Assembly: GCA_018062305.1 (NCBI GenBank)
Contig: JAGOSK010000003.1
Location: forward strand, 1-62,615
Direction of reading: 5' to 3'
Source: Minisyncoccota bacterium
GTDB taxonomy: Bacteria > Patescibacteriota > Minisyncoccia > Phycocordibacterales > CAIZLB01
DNA length: 62,615 nucleotides
The translations under genes were made by a program, and so were the position numbers. The notes beneath the pieces were generated by a model. That model ran no database searches and was not told the DNA's origin. It worked only from the letters and a program-made list of their open reading frames with translations. Positions 7,125 through 53,857 of the stretch are shown piece by piece (the first letter of the stretch is position 1; every line of letters begins with the position of its first letter).

Positions 7125-9215
7125 CTATTCCACCAACACAGTACCTTCACTCACCTCCTCCACGAGACTCTTCGGACCAAACACGAGTACACCAAGATAT
7201 TCGATATCATCGAACTTTTTCTCTTTGGTAGTTGCGACCACTTTATTATCATTTGTGGTTTCAATCATTTCACGAGTGAACTCTGCGATAGCAAGACCTT
7301 TTTCAACTGCTCGAGCAATAACATTTTTTACAGCATCATTTGAATCTATTTCCTTAATCATGATCGCATGTTGAATATTAAGCTTGATGTCTTTATCATC
7401 AGCAGTCTTTGCACTTTCATATTTAAAAAGTTTTTTTCCTGCAGTTCCTGCAAAAGATGCACTAAGATGCGCAACAGTATTCATTCTCTGCCAACCCACA
7501 AGATTTGCACCAGCATTGAGAACAATAACTGCTATCAGATTTTCTTTTTTCTTTGCATTTTTTCCGCTACCATTTATGCCGTCTGAGCCATTTGAACCAA
7601 CTGAATTAGCACTGCCATTTCCACCATCTTCAGGCTTCATCGTTGGGAAAAGAATAGCGTCTTTGATATTTCCAGTATTCATGAAAAGCATAGCAAGACG
7701 GTCAACACCAATACCGATACCACCGTTTGGTGGCATACCGTATTCCATTGCTTCGAGATAGTCTTGATCACTTGGTGAAATTTCTCCATCACCTTTTCGC
7801 TTCTTTCTATCTTGATCTTCATATCTCTCTTTTTGATCAACTGGATTATTGAGCTCTGAGAAGCAGTTTGTAACTTCGAGTCCTCCCATAACAAGCTGGA
7901 ATCGGTCGATAAGTGTTTTGTCATCCTCTCTTCTTTTTGCAAATGGATTAAATTCAACAGGATAGTTGATGAGGAATATTGGCTGGAAAAGTTTTGGTCG
8001 AACAGCTTTTTTGTAAATCTTGTCGATAATCTTTTCAAACTCGTCTGCTGGTTCAATATCAGCTCCATACTTGTGAGCTACCTCAACAAGCTCTTCTCGA
8101 GACTTTGAACGTACATCACTGATGCCTGCGTATTCTGCAATCACATCAAGATATTCACGAACGATAAATGGTTTACCTGTATCAATAGTTTGCCCTTCGT
8201 ACTCAAATGAATCAGTACCAAAAAGTTCTCGCACCAATGACTGTACAAGGTCTTGTATAAACTGTCTCTGAGATTTTGCGTCAGCATATGCCTCCTGAGA
8301 TTCGAGCATGGTGAACTCTGGGTTGTGAGTAGCATCAATTCCCTCATTTCGAAATCGTCGTCCTACTTCATACACTTTATTGAAACCACCTACTATAAGC
8401 TTCTTGAGGTACAGTTCTTGGGCGATAGTAAGATTGAAGTTAAGGTCGAGTGCATTGTGATGTGTTTCGAAAACAGCTGCTGTAGCGCCACCTGCGAGTG
8501 CCTGGAGGATTGGAAGCTCTACTTCGAGGTATCCATTAGAATCATAAAATCGTCGAACAGCTGTGAGAAGTTTTGAACGGAGTATGAAAGATTTTCGAAC
8601 ATCTTCGTTTGAGAGAACATCAAGATATCGTCTTCGATATCGCTCTTCAACATCTTGTAGTCCATGCCACTTTTCAGGAAGTGGTCGAAGTGACTTCGTA
8701 ATAATTCTCCAAGCAGAAACAACGAGACTCATTTCACCACGTGCAGTTTTGAGTAGTCGTCCTCGCACTTCCAAGAAGTCACCAATATCAGCAGTGTCTT
8801 TAAATAATTCAAAAGCATCTGCAACACCAGTGTGAGCAATAGTCTCTGTAATACCCGAAACCTTTTCTGTGTGAACACCATTTGCATCACTTTCACACCC
8901 ACCCTGCGCACTCATAGTATAGATTGGGTTTTGATCTTTCTTTACAATAGTTTGAAAAGTAGCAGTACCATCAAACAAGTCTGCGAATACCAAAGCACCT
9001 TGCCCACGCAAAGATAATATTCGTCCAACGATGCAGATTTCTTGATTTGTGTACTCAGCAGAACCTTCCTCTTTTACAAGAGCATCAAACTGTTCTCGTA
9101 GATCCTTGAGGTCAAAATCTTTTCGAACAGATACTGGATATAGTTCAATACCAAGAGACTCAAGTTTTTTGAGTTTTTCAAGTCGTACTGCTTTTATTTC
9201 TTCTTGTGATGCCAT
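7125..9215 (-). CDS. lysS: Lysine--tRNA ligase (class II) with a ~168-aa C-terminal extension
   Basis: RFRNEGID, GIGVDRLAMLF and ILFPTMKP motifs. 696 aa versus ~500 typical. The extra C-terminal domain follows a G/S/N-rich linker. Confidence 0.9.
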   Translation of the reverse strand: MASQEEIKAVRLEKLKKLESLGIELYPVSVRKDFDLKDLREQFDALVKEEGSAEYTNQEICIVGRILSLRGQGALVFADLFDGTATFQTIVKKDQNPIYTMSAQGGCESDANGVHTEKVSGITETIAHTGVADAFELFKDTADIGDFLEVRGRLLKTARGEMSLVVSAWRIITKSLRPLPEKWHGLQDVEERYRRRYLDVLSNEDVRKSFILRSKLLTAVRRFYDSNGYLEVELPILQALAGGATAAVFETHHNALDLNFNLTIAQELYLKKLIVGGFNKVYEVGRRFRNEGIDATHNPEFTMLESQEAYADAKSQRQFIQDLVQSLVRELFGTDSFEYEGQTIDTGKPFIVREYLDVIAEYAGISDVRSKSREELVEVAHKYGADIEPADEFEKIIDKIYKKAVRPKLFQPIFLINYPVEFNPFAKRREDDKTLIDRFQLVMGGLEVTNCFSELNNPVDQKERYEDQDRKKRKGDGEISPSDQDYLEAMEYGMPPNGGIGIGVDRLAMLFMNTGNIKDAILFPTMKPEDGGNGSANSVGSNGSDGINGSGKNAKKKENLIAVIVLNAGANLVGWQRMNTVAHLSASFAGTAGKKLFKYESAKTADDKDIKLNIQHAIMIKEIDSNDAVKNVIARAVEKGLAIAEFTREMIETTNDNKVVATTKEKKFDDIEYLGVLVFGPKSLVEEVSEGTVLVE

Positions 9216-42010: not shown

Positions 42011-42156
42011 AACGGAACATTATTCCTTGGCAATAAAAAAGTAAAGGTCCCGCTAGACTTCTTAGGAACCTTCTAGATCAAGAAATAGCAGGAACTTTTA
42101 ATTTGAAACCAGTGTATTAAAAGTTAAGGTCTCAAACTTTAATATGTTTTATAAAT

Positions 42157-42215
42157 TAGTGAACAGACCCTTATTTTAAGGACTTATTCACTAGTTTTTA
42201 CCTAAGTTTAGTGAA
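42157..42215. promoter_or_regulatory. TAGTGAA repeat triplet upstream of abiEi (candidate operator)
   Basis: TAGTGAA at 42157-42163 and 42209-42215, inverted copy TTCACTA at 42187-42193. Confidence 0.35.
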
Positions 42216-42295: not shown

Positions 42296-42901
42296 ATGGA
42301 TAAAATACCCACAAAAGGTGAATATTTAGAGGTCTTATTGAGATCCACAAAAACAATCTTTTCCACAAAGGATGCGGCTTTGTTGTGGAGTGAAGACGAC
42401 AATAAGATTGTTACCGACAGATTAAAGAAGTATGTAAACGCCGAGAAGTTGGTCAGACCATACAGAGGATTATATGCAAAAGACAAAGACTTTGATCATT
42501 TTGAATTAGCGACTCGTATTTACACACCCTCATACATCAGCTTTGAAACAGTTTTAACAAGAGAGGGTGTAAATTTTCAATATTACGGAAACATTTTTGT
42601 TGCCTCATATGTAAATCGAGAGATTAGTGTTGGTGAGCAGAAAATCACATTCGTCCGAATGAAAGATTATGTTTTGAGTAATACTACCGGCATCGAACAT
42701 AAAGATGGTTATGCGATTGCGACCAGAGAGCGAGCTTTTTTGGATCGTGTATATGTGAGCAAGGATTACCACTTTGATAACTTGGCTAATTTGAATTGGG
42801 ATAAGGTATTTGAATATTTGCCTATCTATCATAACAAGCGCTTGGACAAGAAAATCAAAGAATACTTTAAAAGCTATCAGGATAACCAGATAAAGAAATA
42901 A
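42296..42901 (+). CDS. abiEi: AbiEi-family type IV antitoxin / transcriptional regulator
   Basis: DRLKKYVNAEKLVRPYRGLYAKDK...TPSYISFETVLTREGV. Directly precedes an AbiEii-like gene. Confidence 0.7.
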   Translation: MDKIPTKGEYLEVLLRSTKTIFSTKDAALLWSEDDNKIVTDRLKKYVNAEKLVRPYRGLYAKDKDFDHFELATRIYTPSYISFETVLTREGVNFQYYGNIFVASYVNREISVGEQKITFVRMKDYVLSNTTGIEHKDGYAIATRERAFLDRVYVSKDYHFDNLANLNWDKVFEYLPIYHNKRLDKKIKEYFKSYQDNQIKK

Positions 42902-42902
42902 C

Positions 42903-43598
42903 ATGACGTTAGATTACTCAAAACATAAGAATATTTTATTACAGATTTTGAAGGACATCTATTCTGATACCTCTATTGCTCCCTACTTAGGGTTTAAGGG
43001 CGGTACTGCCGCCATGATGTTTTATGACTTACCGAGAAACTCTGTAGATTTGGATTTGGACTTATTGGATGAGACAAAAGAAAAAGAGGTATTTGAGAAG
43101 ATAAATAAAATCATCACCAACTACGGAAAGATTACAGACTCATACATACAGAGATTCAATTTGAGAAATGTCATCTCATACGATCCAAAGGCTCAGAATA
43201 TAAAAGTGGAAGTAAACCGTCGCCAATTCGGTTCAAAGTATGAAATGAAAACCTTGCTTGGTATCTCTATGCTTGTCATGGTCCAAGAAGATATGTTTGC
43301 TCATAAGTTGATGGCGATGCTTGAACGAATCGGCAAAACAAGTCGAGACATATTTGATGTTCAATATTTTGCTAAAAATAACTGGCCAATAAATCGAAAA
43401 ATTGTAGAGGAACGCTCAGGTGTTTCTTACAAACAGGCATTAGAAAAATCTATTGCTATGTTGGAGTCGATGGACAATAAGCATATCTTAGACGGGCTTG
43501 GTGAATTACTTACTGACTCACAGAAAGATTCTGCGCGTGCCAAATTAAAGAATGACACCATCTTTATATTGAAGGTAATGCACAGTAACGAAAAATAA
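42903..43598 (+). CDS. abiEii: AbiEii/AbiGii-family nucleotidyltransferase toxin (DUF1814)
   Basis: LGFKGGTAAMMFYDLPRNSVDLDLDL. Starts 1 nt after the abiEi stop. Confidence 0.75.
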   Translation: MTLDYSKHKNILLQILKDIYSDTSIAPYLGFKGGTAAMMFYDLPRNSVDLDLDLLDETKEKEVFEKINKIITNYGKITDSYIQRFNLRNVISYDPKAQNIKVEVNRRQFGSKYEMKTLLGISMLVMVQEDMFAHKLMAMLERIGKTSRDIFDVQYFAKNNWPINRKIVEERSGVSYKQALEKSIAMLESMDNKHILDGLGELLTDSQKDSARAKLKNDTIFILKVMHSNEK

Positions 43599-43602
43599 AT
43601 CT

Positions 43603-43791
43603 ATGAATCCAGTTGCAAACCAAAACAAAAAAGAAACCTATATCAAGTGTAAAAAGTGTGGCACTGAGATCTTTTGGAATACACACAAGAAAATGACCCC
43701 ATGCAAGTGCGGGGCTATTGAGATTGATGGAACTGAAGGATACGTAAGGGTGATTGGCAGTAAAGAGGATTACGAAGAAGTACAAAAATAA
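43603..43791 (+). CDS. Small zinc-ribbon-like protein
   Basis: CKKCGTEIFWNTHKKMTPCKCGAIEIDG (CxxC...CxC). Wedged between abiEii and mod with 4-nt gaps. Confidence 0.5.
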   Translation: MNPVANQNKKETYIKCKKCGTEIFWNTHKKMTPCKCGAIEIDGTEGYVRVIGSKEDYEEVQK

Positions 43792-43795
43792 TTAT

Positions 43796-46048
43796 ATGAA
43801 ACTTACTGATAATGAAAAACGAGATATCGTAAAATACTTGGAAGCTGGAAAACCTCTTCCAGAGAAATATCGCTTTTTACTATTCAATGATGATCGAGAG
43901 GTCGAACTTCTTTGGAACGGAAAAACAAATGAAGTAACTAATGTTGTTTTACCTTTTCAAGTGATAGAACAAATTGACGAGCCAAGAAGTGATGCGAAAT
44001 TTGGTAATCAAAATTCTCTTTTTGATACATCAGGTAGACAAATAACCGGTTGGACAAACAAATTGATCTGGGGAGACAACAAGCTCATTCTCTCCTCTCT
44101 AAAGAATGGTCCGCTGCGAAAAGAAATAGAAGCTCAAGGTGGGTTGAAATTGGTCTATATTGATCCACCATTTGATGTAGGGGCAGACTTTTCAATGGAT
44201 ATAAGTATTGGTGATGGCGAAGGTGAACAAAGTTTTACAAAAAAACCATCTGTGATAGAAGAAATCGCTTACCGTGACACTTGGGGTAAGGGTGCTGATA
44301 GCTTCATTGCAATGATATATGAGCGACTAAAATTAATACACGATCTATTGGCGGAAGATGGGAGTATTTACGTACATTGTGATTGGAGAGTAAATAGTTA
44401 TATGAGATTGGTGCTTGATGAGATATTTGGTAAGGATAATTTTATGAATGAGATTGCCTGGCAAAAAATTAGAACCACAAAAGCTCAATCACTTGGATTT
44501 GGAAATGTTCACGATTCAATTTTATTCTATAGGAAAAGTGATAATGCAATTTTTAATAACCAGTTTACAGAATTAGACCCTAATTATATCGAATCACATT
44601 ACAAAACTGATCCAAAAACAAACCGTCTCTACAGAACAGTCTCAATGGTACAAAAAGGTTCAGGTCCTGCGCGAGATTTTGGAGGTAAGGTTATATCTCC
44701 ACCACCTGGAAGACATTGGATTTGGAGCCAGGAAAGAATTAATGAGGCCATAAAAAATAATAGAATTCGATTTACATCTACTGGGACACCTGAAAAAATC
44801 CAATTTCTCGATGAAATGTCCGGAGATATTGTTGATGATATGTGGAGTGACATATACCCGATCAATTCACAGGCTCTTGAGGCGCAAGGTTACCCAACTC
44901 AAAAGCCAGAGGATCTATTGGAGAGAATAATTAAAGCGTCTTCGAATGAAGGCGATCTCATCGCAGATTTTTTCTGTGGTTCAGGAACAACACTAACAGT
45001 GGCAGAAAAGCATGGCCGAAAATGGATCGGAACAGATCTGGGTAAATTTGGTATTCATACGTCTAGAAAAAGGATGATTGGCGTACAAAGAGAGATGAAA
45101 AAAGAAAGTAAGAATTTTAGGGCTTTTGAGATTTTGAATGTTGGTAGATATGAGAGAGAAAATTTCCTTGCAACCAACAATGATTTACGAGCGGAGGAAA
45201 AAGCACAGCAAGCAGAGAGAAAAGAAAAAGAGTTTATAAAAATGATTCTTTCGGCCTATAAAGCTGAACCCGTTGAATCTTTTGTAAACATGCTCGGTAA
45301 GAAGAGGGACCGACTTGTAGCGGTAGGACCAATTAATACACCTGTTTCTTCAAGGTTGGTCCAGGAGATCGTGAAGGAATGTAAGGAAAAAGGAATTACT
45401 AAAGTTGATGTGCTTGGCTTTGATTATGAAATGGGTCTTGATTTCGGTGAGTATAAAGACCAAGGAATTGATATTGCTTTTAGAATAATTCCAAGAGAGG
45501 TTTTTGATAAAAAAGCTGTAGAAAAAGGGCAAGTTAAGTTTTACGATGTGGCATTTATTGAGGCTAAGCCGATTATTAAAGGCAAAGGAAAGGATAAAGA
45601 GATATCAATCGAGCTCTCTGATTTTTCAGTTTTCTACAATCAAGATGATTCTGGTGAAGTCTCCGAGGCTCTACGCCCTGGTGGGTCTAAGGTGGTAGTA
45701 GAAGATGGTCAGGTTGTTAAGATTTTAAAAGATAAAAAGACTGAAGAAGTTTCGAAAGAGATTTTGACGAAGAAATGGAGTGATTGGATCGATTACTGGG
45801 CTGTTGATTTCGATTTTGCAAGCCGAAAAGAAATAATCAAAGTAATTGAGAATGGTGAAGAAAAAGAAATATGGACCGGTGATTACATCTTTGATAATGA
45901 GTGGCAAAGTTTTCGAACAAAGAAGAATAGGAATCTCGATCTGATCAGTGCGCCAAAAGTAGCGGCAAAGGGCTCTTATAAAGTTGCTGTAAAAGTGGTT
46001 GATATCTTTGGAAATGACACAACGAGAGTAATTGAAGTAACTATATGA
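43796..46048 (+). CDS. mod: Type III-like DNA methyltransferase (Mod), beta-class N6A/N4C MTase
   Basis: Start at MKLTDNEKRD (ATG 43796). VELLWNGK, motif IV VYIDPPFDVG preceding motif I FFCGSGTTLTVAEKHGRKWIGTDL, and a long C-terminal region. Confidence 0.85.
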   Translation: MKLTDNEKRDIVKYLEAGKPLPEKYRFLLFNDDREVELLWNGKTNEVTNVVLPFQVIEQIDEPRSDAKFGNQNSLFDTSGRQITGWTNKLIWGDNKLILSSLKNGPLRKEIEAQGGLKLVYIDPPFDVGADFSMDISIGDGEGEQSFTKKPSVIEEIAYRDTWGKGADSFIAMIYERLKLIHDLLAEDGSIYVHCDWRVNSYMRLVLDEIFGKDNFMNEIAWQKIRTTKAQSLGFGNVHDSILFYRKSDNAIFNNQFTELDPNYIESHYKTDPKTNRLYRTVSMVQKGSGPARDFGGKVISPPPGRHWIWSQERINEAIKNNRIRFTSTGTPEKIQFLDEMSGDIVDDMWSDIYPINSQALEAQGYPTQKPEDLLERIIKASSNEGDLIADFFCGSGTTLTVAEKHGRKWIGTDLGKFGIHTSRKRMIGVQREMKKESKNFRAFEILNVGRYERENFLATNNDLRAEEKAQQAERKEKEFIKMILSAYKAEPVESFVNMLGKKRDRLVAVGPINTPVSSRLVQEIVKECKEKGITKVDVLGFDYEMGLDFGEYKDQGIDIAFRIIPREVFDKKAVEKGQVKFYDVAFIEAKPIIKGKGKDKEISIELSDFSVFYNQDDSGEVSEALRPGGSKVVVEDGQVVKILKDKKTEEVSKEILTKKWSDWIDYWAVDFDFASRKEIIKVIENGEEKEIWTGDYIFDNEWQSFRTKKNRNLDLISAPKVAAKGSYKVAVKVVDIFGNDTTRVIEVTI

Positions 46049-47784
46049 AATTAAAATCCTTTCAAATTGAACATGTGAAATCTATAGTAGACTCTGGTGT
46101 CTGTCATGCTTCAGATACTGAAAAAATACTTGTCCTTGCTGGACAAAATGAGGCAGGAAAAAGTGCAGTATTGGAGGCATTAAATTACTTTGGTAATGGT
46201 CCGGACGAGCGATTTATTAAACTTTCAAAGAGACTTAACGCAGAACCAAAAGTTACATGCACCTTTCTTATAGAAGACAAGGATTGTAATTCAGACGATC
46301 AGGAAATAAATGATCTTCTAAAAGAACTAAAGACAGTAGAGTGTTACAGAAGTGGTACAACGAAAGAAGACAATACTTTGTGTACTTCAGATAAGAGTGA
46401 TGAACAAATAAAAGAGTTGATCAAAAAAATTGATTTCTCTGCAAAGGTCACTGAGGAAAATAGTGAAGCAGACGATTCAGCTCGTGAGCAAGCCATTCAA
46501 AAGAAAAAAGATGAGCTCTTTGATACAGTCATCTCTCACATAATTGATTCATTGCCGGAATTCATTCTTTACGACTCTTTTACTGGGTTGTTGCCTGGCG
46601 AAATAAAGATTGCTGAGATTCCTTCAAACCAAGCAGTTCAAGATTTTGAAAGGATCTTTAGTGTTAACTTTGCTGATGCTGTTACTAAAAATCCACAGGA
46701 GCGCAGCTCTATTAAGAGTGCCATCGAGGGTAAGGCTGAACTTGATCTTAATACCTACTGGAGCCAAAAGAGAACAGATGGAGAAGAGGACAAATATCGT
46801 TTTGACATAAACATGATTCCTGGTACGGAGGCGAGAGTTGAATTTCTTATACATCGTGAGGATGGTACCCCATTGTTTATGGAGCAAAAGAGCAAGGGCT
46901 TCCAATGGTTCAATGCTTTCATGCTTCGTTTAAAAGCAATCGGTGTTGAAGATGGTAATTTTGATAACTATATTCTTTTGATTGATGAACCAGGTCAGGG
47001 CTTACATGAGACTGCTCAGAAAAATGTAAAAGTTGTATTGGAAGAGCTGGCTCAAAAAGGAATGCATATTCTCTATACGACACACAATCCTTCCCTTATT
47101 GGAGTAAATGATGATGAGCTTTTAAGAATTCGCCTCGTGTTTCAGAGTAAGGATAAGGGTACTAAAATAAACACGATTGCACAGTTTGCATCATCTCAGG
47201 AAACAGCAAGTAAAGATGCACTGTCACCGATTATCACTGCAATGGGTATCAGTCACCTCGGACAAATCGTTGACGCAAACAAGCTGTGCGTTGTCGTTGA
47301 AGGAATAACAGATCATTATTATTTTACTGCTTTCAAGAGTTTGATAGGTATCGCAAACGACTTTGCTCTTATCCCAGCATGCGGAGTGAAGAATATTCGT
47401 CCACTTGTCAGTATTCTTATTGGTTGGGGCACTAGCTTTAAGGCGATATTTGATGATGGGAAAGAAGGAAAAAGTGTACACAAAGATCTTGCCAAACATC
47501 TCTTCAAAGAAGATGAGGATGGTCTTGCAAAAGTAGTTAAGAAAATGGATGGCTTTGAAGGTATAGAGGACCTCTTAACTAAGGAAGATTTCTATACTTA
47601 TGTATTGAATGAAAGTGTTGCTACTGCAGCAACCTCAAATTCTGAAATTGCAAAGGATAGAAAGAAGGAATTGCTTGCCCGTTTGTTTTTAGAGAAAGTA
47701 AAGAAGGGTGAGATTAAGAAAGAAAATCTGAATGCAACTACTCTTAGTAATTTCTCCAACGCATTAAATTGGCTTACATCATAA
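46045..47784 (+). CDS. OLD-family-like protein: ABC/SMC-type ATPase head plus C-terminal Toprim/DUF4435-like domain
   Basis: Walker A GQNEAGKS (aa 33-40), SKGFQWF (283-289), Walker B LLIDEPGQGLH (311-321), TTHN, VVVEGITDHYYF (416-427), IFDDGKEG (468-475). ATGA overlap with the mod stop. Confidence 0.7.
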   Translation: MKLKSFQIEHVKSIVDSGVCHASDTEKILVLAGQNEAGKSAVLEALNYFGNGPDERFIKLSKRLNAEPKVTCTFLIEDKDCNSDDQEINDLLKELKTVECYRSGTTKEDNTLCTSDKSDEQIKELIKKIDFSAKVTEENSEADDSAREQAIQKKKDELFDTVISHIIDSLPEFILYDSFTGLLPGEIKIAEIPSNQAVQDFERIFSVNFADAVTKNPQERSSIKSAIEGKAELDLNTYWSQKRTDGEEDKYRFDINMIPGTEARVEFLIHREDGTPLFMEQKSKGFQWFNAFMLRLKAIGVEDGNFDNYILLIDEPGQGLHETAQKNVKVVLEELAQKGMHILYTTHNPSLIGVNDDELLRIRLVFQSKDKGTKINTIAQFASSQETASKDALSPIITAMGISHLGQIVDANKLCVVVEGITDHYYFTAFKSLIGIANDFALIPACGVKNIRPLVSILIGWGTSFKAIFDDGKEGKSVHKDLAKHLFKEDEDGLAKVVKKMDGFEGIEDLLTKEDFYTYVLNESVATAATSNSEIAKDRKKELLARLFLEKVKKGEIKKENLNATTLSNFSNALNWLTS

Positions 47785-47787
47785 TTT

Positions 47788-50478
47788 ATGGCCCTACACA
47801 AAAATTTTCCAAAAGATCCATATGAAATACTTGATCCAAGCATCAGGTGGTTTCCTGCTGATGAAGATCTACGTGAAAAAGGGTTCGATAAGCTCATCCC
47901 TCCTCTTGTGGCTGATCTCCGCAAAAAGGTTAAAGAATGGCGGGATAGAGGATACGACGGTGCAAGCGATACTTCCCAAGCACTTTTGAATTGGTGGTTT
48001 AAAGAGGATCATATTCTATATGACCAACACGGCGTATCTTCTCACTTCAGGTACTATTTCTCACAGCGAGAGGCACTTGAGACAGTAGTGTGGCTCTATG
48101 AAGTGGCTAAGGTAAAAGATAAGTATGATCTCATTCGCTATAATTCTACCGGCGTACTCAGTCCCCAGATGTTTACTGAAGAATGGCTTCGTTTTGTCAT
48201 AAAGATGGCAACTGGTGCGGGTAAAACCAAAGTCATGAGCCTCATTATTGCGTGGGCTTATTTCCATAAGAAGTATGAAAAGGATTCTGTATTAGCAAAA
48301 AATTTCCTCCTCATAACACCAAACGTTATCGTCTTCGAAAGAATAAGGAATGATTTTGAAGGATTAAAGATATTCTTCAGTGACCCTGTATTACCAGATA
48401 ATGGATATCGTGGACAAAATTGGCAGGATGATTTCCAGTTGACACTGCACCTTCAGGATGACTTGCGAAATGTTTCTGATACAGGAAATATATTCCTTAC
48501 AAATATCCACAGAGTATTTGAAGGTGATGTAAAAGACGCAAGCCTCGACGATGAGGACACCTCAGCATATTTCCTTGGAAATAAACCTGTTACAAAAACA
48601 AATGATTCTATCGTTGACTTGGGAATGATCGTACGAGATATCGATGAACTCATTGTTATCAATGACGAAGCTCACCATTTACATGATGATAAATCAGCCT
48701 GGGTAAAATCTATTGCGGATATAGATAATCGTTTGAAGCAAAAAGGAACAAAATTGTCCTTACAACTTGATCTTACGGCTACACCTAAAAAGAATGATGG
48801 ATCCATCTTTGTACAAACCATTTCTGATTACCCACTCGTTGAAGCAATACACCAGAGAGTGGTAAAAAATCCAGTGGTGCCTGATGCGGCGAGTCGTGGA
48901 AAACTAAAGGAAAATCAAAGTACGCTCTTTAGTGAAAAATACAGAGATTACATAAACCTCGGTATTGAGGAATGGCAAAAAACATACGAGGCACTAAAAC
49001 CAATGGGTAAAAAGTCTATTCTCTTTATCATGACGGATGATACAAAAAACTGTGATGAGGTAGCCCAATATATTGAGACAAGCTTCAAGGAACTCAAAGG
49101 TGCTGTTTTGACTATTCACACAAACAAGAGCGGTGAAATTTCAGAAACAATCTCTGGTAAAAATAAGGAGGAGTTGGACCTACTCAGAAAACAAGCAAAC
49201 GAGATAGATAGCTGGGAAAGTCCGTTCAAAGTCATTATTTCCGTCTTGATGCTTAAAGAAGGTTGGGATGTAAAGAATGTGACAACTATTGTCGGACTAA
49301 GACCGTATGCCGCAGATTCAAAGATCCTTCCGGAACAAACTCTCGGCCGAGGCCTCCGAAGGATGTTTTTCGGCAGAGATGACGTTGAGGAATATGTGAG
49401 TGTTATCGGTACGCCAGCTTTCATGGACTTCGTAGAATCAATCAAAGGTGAAGGTGTCATTCTTGAAAAGAAGTCGATGGGAACGGGTGCTAAACCCATA
49501 TCTCCAATGGTTATTGAGGTTGATAAAGATAATCCAAAGAAGGACATCGAAAAACTGGATATTGAAATTCCGGTAATGTCCCCTCGAATTCAAAGGGAAT
49601 ATAAAAACCTTGCCCAGTTAGATGTGTCTGCGTTTGGAAATAAAAAGGTTGCGGTTAAAGTTTTTTCCGAAGAAGAAAAAAGAGAGATTGTCTTTAAGGA
49701 TGTCGTTGGTGAAAAAACACATCACACAACAATCCTTTCAGGTGAAATTGAACCAGATTATCAAAGTGTTGTTGGTTTTTTTGCACAGGCAATTATGCGA
49801 GAACTCAGGCTTTTCGGTTGTTACGATATCTTGTTTGGTAAGGTAAGAGAATTTGTGCAGGGCCATCTGTTCGATAGCCAGGTAAATTTATCTGACTTAA
49901 ATACACTTCGAAATTTATCGGAGGTTGAGTATATACGACTCATAAAGGACTCATTCAAAAAAGCCATCAACGATCTTACTGTTGAGGACAAAGGAGATAC
50001 GGAAATAAAGAATTACATAAAAATTAGTGAGGCACGTCCTTTCGTTGTTAACGACAAGTCATATTTAATACCTAAAAAATCAGTCTTCAATAAAATTGTT
50101 GGTGATAGTGATTTTGAGTTGGTATTCTCAGACTTTCTTGAAAATTGCGATGATGTAATTTCCTTTGCGAAGAACTTCCAAAACAAGGAAGCAAGCGCTC
50201 TTAGAATTGAGTACAAAAACTCAGAAGGGTTCATAGCCACTTATTATCCCGACTTCTTTGTAAAAAAAGATGAGAAAACGGTTTACATTGTTGAGACAAA
50301 AGGACGAGAGGAGGAAAATGACAAGTTGAAATTTGAGAGACTACAAAAATGGTGTGAGGATGTGAACAATCGACAAAACAGGGTTGTTTATAAAGCGCTC
50401 TACATAAGGCAAGAAGACTGGGAAAAAGACAGACTCAAGAACTTTAACGAGGCTGTAAGGATGTTTAATAAGAGCTAG
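47788..50478 (+). CDS. res: Type III restriction enzyme Res subunit (SF2 helicase plus PD-(D/E)xK nuclease)
   Basis: ATGAGKTKV, VINDEAHHLH, QTLGRGLRR, and C-terminal YYPDFFVKKDEKTVYIVETKG. Confidence 0.85.
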   Translation: MALHKNFPKDPYEILDPSIRWFPADEDLREKGFDKLIPPLVADLRKKVKEWRDRGYDGASDTSQALLNWWFKEDHILYDQHGVSSHFRYYFSQREALETVVWLYEVAKVKDKYDLIRYNSTGVLSPQMFTEEWLRFVIKMATGAGKTKVMSLIIAWAYFHKKYEKDSVLAKNFLLITPNVIVFERIRNDFEGLKIFFSDPVLPDNGYRGQNWQDDFQLTLHLQDDLRNVSDTGNIFLTNIHRVFEGDVKDASLDDEDTSAYFLGNKPVTKTNDSIVDLGMIVRDIDELIVINDEAHHLHDDKSAWVKSIADIDNRLKQKGTKLSLQLDLTATPKKNDGSIFVQTISDYPLVEAIHQRVVKNPVVPDAASRGKLKENQSTLFSEKYRDYINLGIEEWQKTYEALKPMGKKSILFIMTDDTKNCDEVAQYIETSFKELKGAVLTIHTNKSGEISETISGKNKEELDLLRKQANEIDSWESPFKVIISVLMLKEGWDVKNVTTIVGLRPYAADSKILPEQTLGRGLRRMFFGRDDVEEYVSVIGTPAFMDFVESIKGEGVILEKKSMGTGAKPISPMVIEVDKDNPKKDIEKLDIEIPVMSPRIQREYKNLAQLDVSAFGNKKVAVKVFSEEEKREIVFKDVVGEKTHHTTILSGEIEPDYQSVVGFFAQAIMRELRLFGCYDILFGKVREFVQGHLFDSQVNLSDLNTLRNLSEVEYIRLIKDSFKKAINDLTVEDKGDTEIKNYIKISEARPFVVNDKSYLIPKKSVFNKIVGDSDFELVFSDFLENCDDVISFAKNFQNKEASALRIEYKNSEGFIATYYPDFFVKKDEKTVYIVETKGREEENDKLKFERLQKWCEDVNNRQNRVVYKALYIRQEDWEKDRLKNFNEAVRMFNKS

Positions 50479-50504
50479 TTTGGCCCATAATTAGGCCCTA
50501 AATT

Positions 50505-50543
50505 GCCCTGTGTACGCTTTTCCAAGCCTATTCAGGGCTTTTT
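50505..50543 (+). terminator. Intrinsic terminator after res
   Basis: GCCCTG...(inner GCTT/AAGC)...CAGGGC followed by TTTTT. Confidence 0.55.
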
Positions 50544-50580
50544 ACGTTGTCTCGGCCAATACCCACTAATTTGCACTTAT

Positions 50581-51000
50581 TCGGACCTCATACTTACTCG
50601 GGTCCCTAAGGAAAAGTAATTCACACTGAAGTGCGTGTTTAGACGGATCATACTACTCCTATCCAAGAATTGATTCCGCAGAGTTTTGAGGGTTTTTTCT
50701 TGGGTACCATCAGATCGTCCTAGCAGAAAAGTAATGCAACGCATTTTTCACTTTTTGGACAATAGGATTAAGACAGTCCTCAGAGGTAAGAGTAATTCCT
50801 ACAGTTAGGAACTTTATACATCTTAGGATAAACCCATAATCCTAGCCATAAAAAGTAATACACCATGTTTTGCTTTTTTTAAGCACTAGGATTAAGTAGT
50901 TCTTTGGTCCGAAGTAATTCCTGCAGTTAGGAATTTATAGGGCTTCAGAATAGACAAATCGAAGGTCCAAAAGTAATGCACGTAATTTTGCATAAAATTG
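50581..51000. repeat. Array of seven ~60-nt degenerate units, each with RTCC...AAAGTAAT flanked by short stem-loops
   Basis: Cores at 50614, 50665 (degenerate AAGAAT), 50729, 50790 (GAGTAAT), 50853, 50912 and 50971. See findings for the stems. Confidence 0.8.
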
Positions 51001-51021
51001 GGTCTACGATACATAACACTT

Positions 51022-51078
51022 CCAGTTGCACGGAAAGAGCTGAGTCACTTGCAACTGGGACTCAGCTCTTTCTGTTTT
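51022..51078 (+). terminator. 14-bp-stem terminator-like hairpin interleaved with a second 9-bp inverted repeat
   Basis: GAAAGAGCTGAGTC (51033-51046) pairs with GACTCAGCTCTTTC (51059-51072), then TGTTTT. CCAGTTGCA (51022-51030) pairs with TGCAACTGG (51050-51058). Confidence 0.6.
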
Positions 51079-51128
51079 CAGGAAGATCTCAATAACGGTC
51101 GAAATTATTAACCAAACACTACACCATT

Positions 51129-51398
51129 ATGCTAAGCAAACAAGCACTAGATGAATATCGAGAGATCTATCGCAATGAACATGGCAAGGTCCCTTCGGAT
51201 GAAATTCTTGTTGAAGAAGCAACCAAACTCCTAACTGTCTTTGACCTTGTCTACCGGCCTGTGAAAAAGGTGTGGCTTAAAGAATATGAACAACAACGAG
51301 AAGAATTTCCTCGAGTGGTTGGACCCGAAGAAGAGCAAAGTGGAGATAGCCCATGCCTACCACAAGGCGAAGATCGAGGAACTGAAGAATCAGATTGA
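51129..51398 (+). CDS. Small conserved hypothetical protein, paralog of 41786-42010
   Basis: The N-terminal 45 aa are homologous to the left-end ORF. The 3' third overlaps the next ORF out of frame. Confidence 0.5.
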   Translation: MLSKQALDEYREIYRNEHGKVPSDEILVEEATKLLTVFDLVYRPVKKVWLKEYEQQREEFPRVVGPEEEQSGDSPCLPQGEDRGTEESD

Positions 51399-52185
51399 TC
51401 GGTCCCTATTGCGCGGCAAGAGAAAGCCTACTCGGTTTTTCGTAGAGAATGAATTTGTGGAGCATGGCTATATGGAAAAGTTGCCAAAGCTCTGCACGCT
51501 CGTTTATTGCGCAATTCTGAAACATGGAAATACGCAGACACAAGTCGCATGGCCGAGTCTGACCACTATCCAGGACCTGACTGGAGAGAAGAACAGAAAC
51601 TATGTGTCAAATGCGGTCCGACTTCTTGTTGAGTGCAGCATCCTTGGTGTGGTCCAGACAAAGAGTGGATTCAAAACTCTGAACCTGTACTACTTTAAGT
51701 CGGTCGATTTTTGGAAAAGCATAGCCCATGTTAAAGGGCGTCTCAAACTTAAAGATTCAGTTGCGCAGTATCCAGATATACATCTCCGTAGTATCCGAAA
51801 GCGCAGGAACCGTAGTATTAACGTAGATACTCTAACTAACCAAATAAATAAATCCCCGAATTCTTTAACTAGCATAGGCGATGTTCTTAAGAGGAAAATG
51901 CATAAGTGGCAACTACCGGAACAAGTTGCTATTCAAGAGCCTTCTGGGCATGATGTCGTTGAGACAGCCTATGAAGGAAAGATACCCTTAAGTGAGGTAG
52001 TGAGACCCACAGAAAACGCAGATAATTTTCCCGATATAGCGGGAAATTTACGGGAAGTCGGCAGTATCCAATCAGATACTACGGAACCACCGTTAAAAAA
52101 CGGTGAAAAATGGGCAGAGCCAGTAAATGAGACCCACATACCTGACACACAAATAAACCATGAACCAGACAAACCAACCAATTAA
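51286..52185 (+). CDS. Winged-helix (HTH_36/DnaD-like) DNA-binding protein, possible replication initiator or regulator
   Basis: LCTLVYCAILKHGNTQTQVAWPSLTTIQDLTGEKNRNYVSNAVRLLVECSIL. True start uncertain. Confidence 0.5.
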   Translation: MNNNEKNFLEWLDPKKSKVEIAHAYHKAKIEELKNQIDRSLLRGKRKPTRFFVENEFVEHGYMEKLPKLCTLVYCAILKHGNTQTQVAWPSLTTIQDLTGEKNRNYVSNAVRLLVECSILGVVQTKSGFKTLNLYYFKSVDFWKSIAHVKGRLKLKDSVAQYPDIHLRSIRKRRNRSINVDTLTNQINKSPNSLTSIGDVLKRKMHKWQLPEQVAIQEPSGHDVVETAYEGKIPLSEVVRPTENADNFPDIAGNLREVGSIQSDTTEPPLKNGEKWAEPVNETHIPDTQINHEPDKPTN

Positions 52186-53797
52186 ATACTTCCTCTATGC
52201 TCGTAAATCCAGCGAGGCAGAAGATCGCCAGGCAGCATCCATAGATGCCCAGAAAGACGAGCTTTTGAAGATTGCAAAGGATCAAGGCTTACACATCCTG
52301 GATATCCTTGAAGAATCACAATCAGCCAAGAAACCAGGTAGGAAGGTATTCAACTCAATGCTTGAGAGGATCTATAAAGGCGAAGCCAATGGCATCCTAT
52401 GCTGGAAACTGGACCGCCTAGCCCGTAATCCTGTCGATGGTGGCCAGATAAGCTGGATGTTGCAGCAGAGTGCCGTATCTAAAATCGTTACCTTCGGCCG
52501 AACCTATTATCCGACCGACAACGTGCTCATGATGCAGGTTGAGCTAGGTATGGCTAATCAGTTTATACGAGACCTATCAGTGAACGTAAAGCGAGGTCTG
52601 CAAAAGAAGGTAAGAGATGGCTGGATGCCAAGTGGCGCACCGATTGGATATCTCAATACCCCAAATAAGCAAAAGGGATATAAGACCTTAGAAAAAGATC
52701 CCGATAGATTTCCATTGGTCCGAAGACTCTTTGACCTTGCACTTACCGGCAATTATTCCATGGCCCAAATTTGGAATATTTCAAGAAAACAATTGAATCT
52801 CCGAACGGTCCCACGTAGGAATATAGGCGGAGAACATCTTTCACGATCAGCAATTTATGCAGTCCTCGGTAATCCATTTTATTACGGCTGGTTTGAGTTT
52901 CCACTACACAGTGGCAATTGGAATAAGGGAGCACATGAGCCAATGGTAACCAAAGAAGAATTTGATCAGGTACAAAAGGTTATGGGTAGGACCAACCAAC
53001 CACGCCCACGACATGAAGAGCGAATGTTTGCATTTACCGGCCTTATGAAATGCGCCACCTGTGGCTGCAGCATTACAGCCCAAGCCAAAGTAAAGCGTTG
53101 CAAAAATGGCAACGTACATCACTATGTTTACTACAACTGCACCAAAAAGAGATACGATGCTGGCTGCACTGAAAAGCATGTCGAAGTAAAACTGCTACAT
53201 CTACAGATTGGAGCAATACTTAAAGATATAAGAATTTCAGAGGAGTATCGTGACTGGGCGGTCCGCCACGTCCATGAGGTCCGCAAGAATGAGGCCGAGA
53301 GTGATTCGATAGCGATAAGGACCAAACACAAAGAGTGTGAAGAAGTAACGCAGCAGCTGCAGTCTTTGACCTTGAACTTCACAGCGCCTTCCAACAAGGC
53401 TCGAAACGTTATTGGTGAACAGGAATACCAGTCTCTCAAGTCTGAATTACTCAGAAAGAAGGGACTCCTCGAAGATGAATTGAAGATCAAGAATAAGGCA
53501 GTTGAACAATGGGCAGAACTTTCAGAGCAAACCTTTGACTTTGCCTGCTATGCACACCTTTGGTACGAGAATGGCGATGAAAAGACCAAAAGAGCGATAC
53601 TCGCATGTCTTGGCTCGAACCTCACCATTTCCGACAAAAAGATCCAGCTTTCCTACAGTTCTTTCTTTTTGAGCCTCATAAAAGCACGAGAAGCTATTGA
53701 GCGGGAAATCGAGCACGCTCGAACCTACAAAAAGCCAGGCCACATACAACAAAAGTGGCATCATGTGCCACTTTTGTCAGTCAGGCTCCGTGGGTAG
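52160..53797 (+). CDS. Large serine recombinase
   Basis: YLYARKSSEAEDRQAASIDAQ (catalytic Ser region), CWKLDRLARN, recombinase domain, zinc ribbon (CATCGCSITAQ...YYNCTKK), coiled coil. Confidence 0.9.
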   Translation: MNQTNQPIKYFLYARKSSEAEDRQAASIDAQKDELLKIAKDQGLHILDILEESQSAKKPGRKVFNSMLERIYKGEANGILCWKLDRLARNPVDGGQISWMLQQSAVSKIVTFGRTYYPTDNVLMMQVELGMANQFIRDLSVNVKRGLQKKVRDGWMPSGAPIGYLNTPNKQKGYKTLEKDPDRFPLVRRLFDLALTGNYSMAQIWNISRKQLNLRTVPRRNIGGEHLSRSAIYAVLGNPFYYGWFEFPLHSGNWNKGAHEPMVTKEEFDQVQKVMGRTNQPRPRHEERMFAFTGLMKCATCGCSITAQAKVKRCKNGNVHHYVYYNCTKKRYDAGCTEKHVEVKLLHLQIGAILKDIRISEEYRDWAVRHVHEVRKNEAESDSIAIRTKHKECEEVTQQLQSLTLNFTAPSNKARNVIGEQEYQSLKSELLRKKGLLEDELKIKNKAVEQWAELSEQTFDFACYAHLWYENGDEKTKRAILACLGSNLTISDKKIQLSYSSFFLSLIKAREAIEREIEHARTYKKPGHIQQKWHHVPLLSVRLRG

Positions 53798-53857
53798 GGA
53801 TCGAACCTACGACCAAGCGATTAACAGTCGCTTGCTCTACCGCTGAGCTACCACGGA
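53786..53857 (-). tRNA. tRNA-Asn (anticodon GTT), CCA not encoded
   Basis: Manual cloverleaf: TCCGTGG-TA-GCTC-AGCGGTA-GAGC-A-AGCGA-CTGTTAA-TCGCT-TGGTC-GTAGG-TTCGATC-CCTAC-CCACGGA-G. Confidence 0.9.

Follow-up and report, generated by a model that had tools for sequence, protein, structure and literature searches.

What is the role of a non-coding tract that is filled with short repeated motifs and stands directly before the genes of a recombinase operon, and would such repeats act as RNA or as DNA? The question is raised by a stretch of 62,615 nucleotides (nt) from a Minisyncoccota bacterium (contig JAGOSK010000003.1 of assembly GCA_018062305.1), analysed over its whole length and hereafter called the window. 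In it, the tract at 50479-51128 precedes a small open reading frame (ORF), the gene of a protein with an HTH_36 winged helix and the gene of a large serine recombinase, which runs into an asparagine transfer RNA gene (tRNA-Asn). A first-pass annotation, made from the letters of the sequence, had seen an array of structured units around AAGTAAT cores at 50581-51000 and had suggested either a tandem structured RNA or a protein-binding array. We found that the tract is a real, conserved and structured module that is absent from Rfam. Counted from its first terminator-like element (T1) to a GGTCGAA box before the small ORF, the module spans 50497-51103, which is wider than the array as originally given. 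The reading that we favour, with a probability of roughly 40%, is that the tract encodes a leader RNA of tandem hairpins, with a bistable terminator (T2) at its end that would gate the recombinase operon; an upstream non-coding RNA sharing the promoter of the operon may equally be the right wording.

Conservation was assessed from the HTH_36 protein, which has 63 relatives in the databases, down to about 37% identity. Genome and metagenome collections scanned with an alignment of these relatives yielded 57 loci, and almost all of those bearing organism names belong to Candidatus Saccharibacteria or other Patescibacteria. Clusters of two to seven AGTAAT copies, spaced 55-68 nt, were found 300-600 nt upstream of the HTH_36 gene, always on the strand of the gene, and they persisted even where the HTH_36 protein was just ~40% identical. 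A unit profile was built with nhmmer from 116 distinct units, and its matches at E <=0.01 were counted in the 51 loci for which 650 nt or more of upstream DNA was available. One to six units were detected in 46 of these loci. All 164 unit matches were on the + strand between T1 and T2, with none elsewhere in ~520 kb. The array loci share a homologous downstream operon, composed of the small ORF, the HTH_36 protein and the large serine recombinase, and a tRNA-Asn gene follows the recombinase at every locus whose flank could be examined. Homologous arrays beside related winged helix-turn-helix or recombinase genes, which the first-pass annotation had proposed to look for, are thus present, and they are always co-oriented with these genes. 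The left-to-right order is also shared, with T1, a promoter-like site, the units, T2, the GGTCGAA box and the small ORF following one another. Among the loci without a profile match, L006 has T1, T2 and units of a different core type, L007 and L026 represent one variant in which the whole leader is lost, and L022 and L059 are distant relatives. Between loci L009 and L040 the array is 88% identical and the recombinase gene 87.5%, with the HTH_36 gene between them barely alignable; the non-coding module is about as conserved as the recombinase gene.

Homology to other loci in blastn comparisons begins at ~50482-50490, at T1, and the variable cargo of the loci ends there. Across loci T1 consists of a near-invariant block, CCCTAAAnnGCCCTGTGTACGCTTTTC, followed by a hairpin and T5. 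Its 17-mer (<=3 mismatches) was found upstream of the array in 47 of the 57 scanned loci, a terminator-like site was called at 50524-50540, and a long T1 hairpin was predicted by RNAalifold. Searching the window with Rfam 15 returned only tRNA above the gathering threshold, with no match to STAXI, CRISPR repeats or known leaders, and a permissive Rfam scan of 50400-51200 gave chance-level matches alone (E at least 0.02). A literature search on Saccharibacteria serine-recombinase or tRNA-Asn elements found nothing relevant. We also rejected a viral origin: the T1 17-mer matched only two unrelated high-GC phage ORFs, and the viral contigs of IMG/VR lacked the unit motifs and the other conserved non-coding motifs, save for chance matches.

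The tract contains no ORF of more than 55 amino acids, in agreement with the first-pass annotation. The exact AAGTAAT copies named there, at 50614, 50729, 50853, 50912 and 50971, are all present, five copies within 360 nt and on the + strand only in the tract, as is the GAGTAAT variant at 50790; outside the array, just 14 copies of AAGTAAT occur in the 62.6-kb window with both strands counted. The apical hairpins and T-runs that it listed are present as well. The site at 50665 had been taken for a degenerate AAGTAAT and turned out to be a separate C-type core, AAGAATTGATTCC, that recurs in related loci. In some units, including this second unit of the window, the third core type AATTGATTCC stands in for AAAGTAAT, and C-type AATTGATTCCGCA...TTTT units are also present in L005, L019, L020 and L038. 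By pairwise repeat finding, two unit types take turns along the array, A-type (AGTAAT-GCAC...TTTGCAC-TTTT) and B-type (AGTAAT-TCCTACAGTTAGGAA), giving a period of ~122 nt, and no repeat was reported by Tandem Repeats Finder on the tract because the units are too divergent. TAGGA/TCCTA is enriched, with nine copies within 50657-50932. The unit profile gave seven + strand matches in the window, all in 50558-51011 and zero elsewhere; five had E-values below 1e-4, one of 0.005 and one of 0.13, the last being a degenerate 'unit 0' (50558-50588) in the promoter region. Unit 2 was missed by the profile and was assigned through its C-type core and its fold. A logo of 118 distinct units reads AAA-AGTAAT-n-C, with the C at +7 conserved in 100%. 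Downstream boxes follow as TTTTGCA (+14 to +20), TTTTT (+22 to +26) and TAnGAT at a constant +33 to +38, and then a variable linker of 17-29 nt. An A-run and a T-run border the apical hairpin of each unit.

When 42 whole arrays were folded at minimum energy, 103 of the 133 units formed one discrete long hairpin. The RTCC segment 5' of the core pairs with the TAnGAT segment 3' of the core, the T-run is the partner of the A-run and the core, and the tip is closed by a short apical hairpin. In the first-pass annotation, RTCC had usually been paired with a GGAY-like segment further upstream. The complementary segments do exist, but they form a weaker inter-unit alternative that was used by 16 units only in the whole-array folds, and the unit-internal duplex was stronger than the inter-unit one in 87 of 90 neighbour comparisons (-12.5 vs -6.9 kcal/mol). 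Nor is the core single-stranded, as had been supposed: on average 5.3 of its 8 nt are paired in these folds, mostly to the T-run. The feature had been seen correctly in outline, with its stems mis-assigned.

Pairing that is kept despite sequence change, another claim of that annotation, was supported. We clustered the units into ortholog classes, and in all 17 classes with at least three members the RNAalifold consensus was one hairpin per unit, with closing-stem sequences that vary by class. Arms from the same unit pair at -11.8 kcal/mol versus -8.9 kcal/mol for arms combined across classes, and none of 20000 permutations reached this value (p < 5e-5). From A- to B-type units, the apical pairs 6:19 (G-C/U-A) and 8:17 (A-U/C-G) switch jointly. 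In a rigid alignment made of 13 B-type units, pairing holds in 72.8% of cells, as against 34-57% when the partner is slid, and four pairs change on both sides; there are 11 such cells, a count matched by 1 of 500 shuffles. The folding z-score of the tract is -5.8 on the + strand. The evidence for intrastrand pairing of the units is good, not overwhelming.

The strongest result of the analysis is T2, the element between the last unit and the GGTCGAA box. We tested its two helices, H1 and H2, on 21 distinct sequences with the partner slid by 1-3 columns as controls. All 525 of 525 cells were standard pairs, versus 36-48% in the slid controls, and both sides had changed in 11 of 25 pairs (5/9 in H1 and 6/16 in H2). 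The four arms follow in the order A-B-A'-B' with joins of 0 nt, and H1 encloses the 5' arm of H2, so that the two helices are mutually exclusive. H2 contains G-U pairs, which would be C-A if read on the other strand, and in all 14 cases the + strand gave the more stable T2 (-29.2 vs -22.4 kcal/mol), indicating that a + strand RNA is under selection at T2. For nascent RNA up to 51058 the minimum-energy fold is H1 (-12.7 kcal/mol); H2 (-26.8 kcal/mol) prevails once its 3' arm is transcribed. A U-run follows H2 in 20 of 28 distinct T2 versions, and H2 with its U-run is a predicted intrinsic terminator. As in an attenuator, a GC-containing hairpin with a U-run lies on the coding strand upstream of an ORF, and a mutually exclusive second helix, H1, is kept by selection. 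No Rfam riboswitch or T-box matched the tract.

We further considered from where the operon could be transcribed. T2 lies just 35-50 nt before the start codon of the small ORF, the GGTCGA box of L048 follows T2 after only ~10 nt, and no conserved promoter was found between T2 and the small ORF across loci. The operon must therefore be transcribed through T2 from an upstream promoter, for which the sole conserved candidate is the site directly 3' of T1. A promoter-like pair recurs there in divergent loci, as TT(A/G)CGT, a spacer of 16-19 nt and then ACTAAT, TCAAAT, GAAATT or CAAAAT. From the sequence comparison we infer this promoter, the action of the hairpins as RNA and the following regulatory logic. 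T1 would stop transcription arriving from the cargo, and the promoter just past it would start an RNA of ~500 nt, predicted to fold as a string of independent imperfect hairpins of ~55 nt (seven here), each with AAAGUAAUnC on its 5' strand. At T2 the 9-bp H1 would form first and trap the 5' arm of the terminator in its loop, and the 16-bp terminator helix H2 would form only after H1 has been displaced. The choice between H1 and H2 would then set the share of polymerases that read into the recombinase operon. The hairpins may serve as binding modules for a factor that biases this choice or sets RNA stability, possibly one of the two basic-tailed proteins encoded directly downstream.

Several observations weigh against the leader reading. 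Covariation within classes is modest, with 8 compensatory versus 46 break-only variable pairs and most pairs invariant, and we count the 72.8% of paired B-type cells as modest too. The core is conserved far beyond any pairing need. The tract also folds well on the - strand (z -4.6), the + version is the more stable one in just 66 of 124 unit hairpins, and whole arrays split 17/36. Strand assignment by unit energies was therefore abandoned; in the absence of a strand bias the unit hairpins do not themselves indicate RNA, and they could act on either strand, as single-stranded DNA or cruciforms. With regard to the structured RNA or protein-binding array of the first-pass annotation, T2 is clearly + strand-specific while the units fold equally on both strands. 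The putative promoter is weak by consensus and was not called by a consensus scanner. Finally, 8 of the 28 distinct T2 versions have no U-run, so that T2 is not always a canonical terminator.

Table 1. Features of the module and its surroundings (positions in the window).
Feature	Position	Strand	Details
Non-coding tract	50479-51128		Between the Type III restriction subunit gene (47788-50478) and the small ORF, HTH_36 and large serine recombinase genes
T1, conserved block CCCTAAAttGCCCTGTGTACGCTTTTCCAAGCCTATTCAGGGC and T5, terminator-like hairpin	50497-50543	+	Stem 50505-50510/50533-50538
Putative sigma-70-type promoter	50541-50570	+	-35 TTTACG (50541-46), 18-nt spacer, -10 ACTAAT (50565-70)
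Unit 1, A-type, degenerate here	50583-50642	+	5' hairpin GGACCU/GGGUCC; profile E 0.005; core AAAAGTAAT 50612-50620; apical hairpin 50616-23/50627-34
Unit 2, C-type	50660-50706	+	Core AAGAATTGATTCC 50665-50677 within 18-bp imperfect hairpin
Unit 3, A-type	50717-50768	+	Closing stem GUCCUA/UAGGAU; core 50727-50735; apical AAUGC/GCAUU; E 5e-9
Unit 4, B-type	50776-50829	+	21-bp imperfect hairpin GUCCUCAGAGGUAAGAGUAAUUCCUA/UAGGAACUUUAUACAUCUUAGGAU; E 1e-7; class 6; compensatory pairs
Unit 5, A-type	50837-50894	+	9-bp closing stem UAAUCCUAG/CUAGGAUUA around AAAAAGUAAUACA/UGUUUUGCUUUUU; E 1e-8; class 3
Unit 6, B-type	50899-50951	+	GUUCU..GGUCC/GGGCU..AGAAU around AAUUCCUG/UAGGAAUU; E 4e-5; class 9
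Unit 7, A-type, last	50958-51010	+	12-bp closing stem AUCGAAGGUCCAA/UUGGGUCUACGAU; apical AUGCA/UGCAU; E 3e-6; class 4; counterpart in L012 GAUCCAA/UUGGAUC
T2 helix H1	51022-51058	+	CCAGUUGCA (51022-30) with UGCAACUGG (51050-58), 9 pairs
T2 helix H2	51031-51078	+	51031-51046 with 51059-51074, 16 bp; U-run UUUU 51075-78
GGTCGAA box	51097-51103	+	Between T2 and small ORF; in nearly all loci; could be part of the ribosome-binding region or a pairing partner
Small ORF	51129-51398	+	89 aa
HTH_36 (PF13730) protein	51286-52185	+	299 aa
Large serine recombinase	52160-53797	+	Resolvase, Recombinase and zinc-ribbon domains
tRNA-Asn(GTT)	53784-53857	-	Recombinase stop codon inside tRNA 3' end

Known leaders offer a partial model for such a design. 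The leaders of pT181 repC and pIP501 repR work by transcriptional attenuation, and in the trp leader of B. subtilis TRAP binds 11 repeated triplets. Similar to the plasmid leaders, a long structured putative leader lies here upstream of a gene of the replication or recombination type, with an intrinsic terminator predicted directly before the first ORF and a mutually exclusive second helix under selection; similar to the trp leader, repeated motifs stand directly upstream of the switch. However, the competing helix here encloses the terminator arm instead of overlapping it (A-B-A'-B'), so that any block would be topological. Moreover, the repeated elements are hairpins of ~55 nt rather than triplets, and the leader differs from the known ones in the T2 versions without a U-run. 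The countertranscripts of pT181 and pIP501 also lack a counterpart: no - strand sigma-70-like site was found at a conserved position in 42 arrays, the best one being shared by 6 of 42.

The genes around the module form the setting in which these readings have to be weighed. To the left of T1, the window carries a defence cargo (42296-50478) with AbiEi/AbiEii, a Type III methylase and restriction subunit and an OLD-family ATPase. We checked the cargo upstream of T1 in L003, L004, L009, L010, L013, L015, L017 and L020, and most of these loci carry defence genes as well, including Avs4 (1964 bits), Type I/II restriction-modification, PDC-S06 and HerA. The cargo ORFs are nearly all co-oriented with the core, and the window and L009 are syntenic in the host genes that lie further left. 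With its variable defence cargo and syntenic host flank, the region at ~42.0-53.8 kb thus behaves like a defence island in which the core is conserved and the cargo can be swapped. A 23-nt inverted repeat (42232-42254/53898-53920, 83% complementary) brackets the low-GC island including the tRNA-Asn gene and could represent attachment-site half-sites or a chance match. At the left island border (42035-42070 and 42165-42182) there are array-like fragments, AAAAAGTAAAGGTCC...TTAGGAAC and CCCTTATTTTAAGG; with the unit profile these fragments (~42040, 42168) are not significant.

At the other end, the last 14 nt of the recombinase ORF (53784-53797) overlap the 3' end of the convergent tRNA-Asn gene, and the attachment site is therefore probably in the 3' part of the tRNA. 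A crossover at the anticodon, which we had read from the end of homology at 53823, was withdrawn, since the homology ends there because of a group I intron in the tRNA-Asn of other genomes. This intron (RF00028, 72.7 bits) interrupts the anticodon loop of the tRNA-Asn in several related genomes (8541-9112 in L012, with the Rfam match at 8557-8794 on the - strand, and ~8581-9163 in L010), and it carries an HNH-like ORF. The tRNA-Asn of the window is intron-free.

The first two proteins of the operon gave few clues. The small ORF is conserved across the family as a 55-residue two-helix hairpin (predicted local distance difference test score above 90 over residues 1-60) with a variable basic tail, and its 3' end overlaps the HTH_36 start in another frame; it had no family match and, for a good structure model, no fold match. 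The HTH_36 protein consists of a winged helix and then a long predicted-disordered region with conserved short motifs. Its structure model is confident over the winged helix only and too poor for a fold search, and a profile search of PDB sequences returned nothing. In L009/L040 and similar pairs the core is mosaic, the array with the small ORF and the recombinase being ~88% identical and the HTH_36 protein ~40%. Inside the HTH_36 gene there are iteron-like 9-mers, CGCAGTATC (51764), CGTAGTATC (51787) and CGTAGTATT (51811), spaced 22-24 nt and followed within the cluster (51764-51856) by CGTAGATAC and then by an AT-rich stretch. A further direct copy and an inverted copy lie ~290 nt downstream (52060-52083, inverted at 52075). 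With up to one mismatch, the 9-mer has 4 matches in 320 nt versus 23 in the whole window, and related HTH_36 genes carry lineage-specific repeated 7-9-mers at equivalent positions. By analogy, the cluster resembles the lambda origin inside gene O.

Could the array instead act as DNA? In this account the units would be HTH_36 binding sites and form the origin of the excised island, a control or titration array like P1 incA, or a centromere-like site, which we consider unlikely but still a serious rival. In small Paracoccus plasmids the Rep is of the HTH_36 type, and HTH_36 is also a mark of lambda-O-like initiators (PMC6209633, PMC5509034), and this association with plasmid and phage replication initiators is a further point against the leader RNA. 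The array also sits directly upstream of the HTH_36 gene and is always co-oriented with it, its copy number of 1-7 is as for redundant binding sites, equal folding on both strands is what double-stranded palindromes would give, and the core is more invariant than pairing would demand. Iteron origins and control arrays (the lambda ori in gene O, P1 oriR/incA, HTH_36-Rep plasmids) show the same variable copy number and constant orientation of repeats that adjoin the HTH_36 gene. However, iterons are direct repeats of 17-22 bp phased at ~22 bp, or about two helical turns, and no such repeats make up the array: its units are imperfect palindromes of 51-68 nt with co-varying stems, with cores 51-68 nt apart and a unit spacing of 55-68 bp instead of the 17-24 bp of iteron phasing. 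Recognition of double-stranded DNA leaves the co-variation of arms within a unit unexplained, the half-site-like TAGGA/TCCTA arms are variably separated, and the core stays unchanged across HTH_36 types that are just ~40% identical. The 9-mer cluster inside the HTH_36 gene would be a better origin candidate, following the lambda pattern of an ori in O, and the operon must be transcribed through the array.

An RNA acting in trans is another serious rival to which we give a minor chance, of the same order as that of the DNA array. Most transcripts would stop at T2 and the RNA would thus be in excess, its hairpins sequestering the product of the small ORF, the HTH_36 protein or a host factor, in the manner of a type III antitoxin or a sponge RNA; release of the protein would trigger excision or replication. 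The order of promoter, repeats, terminator and protein genes is as this account would have it, T2 supplies a defined 3' end, the many similar hairpins share a single invariant motif, and both downstream proteins have basic disordered tails (RSIRKRRNRS in HTH_36 and the basic C-terminus of the small ORF). Type III toxin-antitoxin loci (ToxIN, CptIN, TenpIN) have the same layout of promoter, tandem RNA repeats, terminator and protein gene in a mobile defence context, and here H2 (with its U-run in 20/28 versions) lies between the repeats and the protein gene. Nevertheless, the repeats are not near-identical but divergent within one array, unlike those of ToxI, and they are hairpins of 51-68 nt instead of pseudoknot units of 34-40 nt. 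No toxin-like or RNase-like protein was found, and thus no endoribonuclease of the ToxN/AbiQ/CptN/TenpN type: the small ORF and the HTH_36 protein had no match, apart from HTH_36 itself, in Pfam, PHROGs, NCBIfam or PADLOC. The echo of such loci heard in the first-pass annotation therefore does not amount to membership, which fails on the repeat type and on the endoribonuclease. We saw no evidence of processing sites, and the GGA motifs lie in stems and not in loops, unlike those of CsrB/RsmZ RNAs; a CsrA sponge of that kind was rejected, as TAGGA/TCCTA form the unit stems and are not exposed GGA loops.

A long shot is that bacteria of the candidate phyla radiation (CPR) possess a shuttle for defence islands, built around a serine recombinase, whose life cycle is run by the hairpins as modular nucleic-acid elements of a new class. 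Two versions fit the evidence. In one, the RNA stoichiometrically restrains the basic-tailed proteins of the island and counts them via a topologically blocked terminator, which would be a protein-sequestering switch unrelated to known riboregulators. In the other, the large serine recombinase uses the folded hairpins to exchange defence cassettes at the T1 boundary, which would amount to a platform akin to an integron but based on a serine recombinase.

It is improbable that the hairpins work as single-stranded DNA or cruciforms, either to signal priming or entry once taken up or, when folded, to serve as recombination sites for cargo swaps at T1. They are strand-symmetric, the defence cargo varies by locus and always ends just before T1, and around CCTAA/TTAGG, short motifs conserved in the arms, sequence varies while structure is kept, which recalls the logic of integron attC sites. 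Yet no relaxase, HUH Rep or tyrosine integrase was found in the core, the units do not alternate with cargo genes, no match of the unit profile lies at the far end of the cargo, and homologous recombination between conserved flanks is a simpler account of cargo turnover. Very improbable, lastly, is a passive insulator of stacked weak bidirectional terminator-like hairpins without a specific partner between the cargo and the recombinase operon: A- and T-runs do flank the apical hairpins, one unit was called terminator-like on the - strand and T1 and T2 read as terminators, but the invariant 10-nt core, the invariant C at +7, the fixed-spacing TAnGAT and the co-varying closing stems would all be needless.

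The conserved boxes of the unit suggested further candidates, none of which held. Sigma-70 promoters in each unit were rejected, because TTGCAC and TAnGAT are just 11 nt apart and AGTAAT lacks the -11 A and a -35 partner; scans showed nothing conserved. As a sigma-54 site, TGCAC...TTGCA has its spacing off by one and a single G, as judged by eye only. A K-turn or sarcin-ricin motif at AGUA is contradicted by an opposite strand that is U-rich and not GA. Small peptides were considered on account of UAAUG stop-start overlaps in A-type cores, with in-frame spacing in some units only, and B-type units have no AUG. For DnaA boxes, TAATGCACA agrees with TTATCCACA at 7/9 positions in a single unit type only. 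STAXI (RF01728) comprises tandem structured motifs near integrase genes of mobile elements, possibly with a role as single-stranded DNA. Our module is likewise a structured unit in tandem on a mobile element beside recombination genes, but the phylum, the unit structure (a hairpin here, a pseudoknot there) and the conserved core differ, and it had no Rfam match.

Almost nothing is known about the regulation of mobile elements in Saccharibacteria and other CPR bacteria. At the loci described here, a compact conserved core of T1, array, bistable terminator, small ORF, HTH_36 and recombinase, placed by tRNA-Asn, carries interchangeable phage-defence systems. If the module is a switch for the recombinase, it would add a new structured RNA motif to libraries such as Rfam and a terminator of unusual design, with an arm that is enclosed by the competing helix instead of being overlapped by it, and it would offer a testable handle on how defence islands of an uncultivated phylum are excised and maintained.

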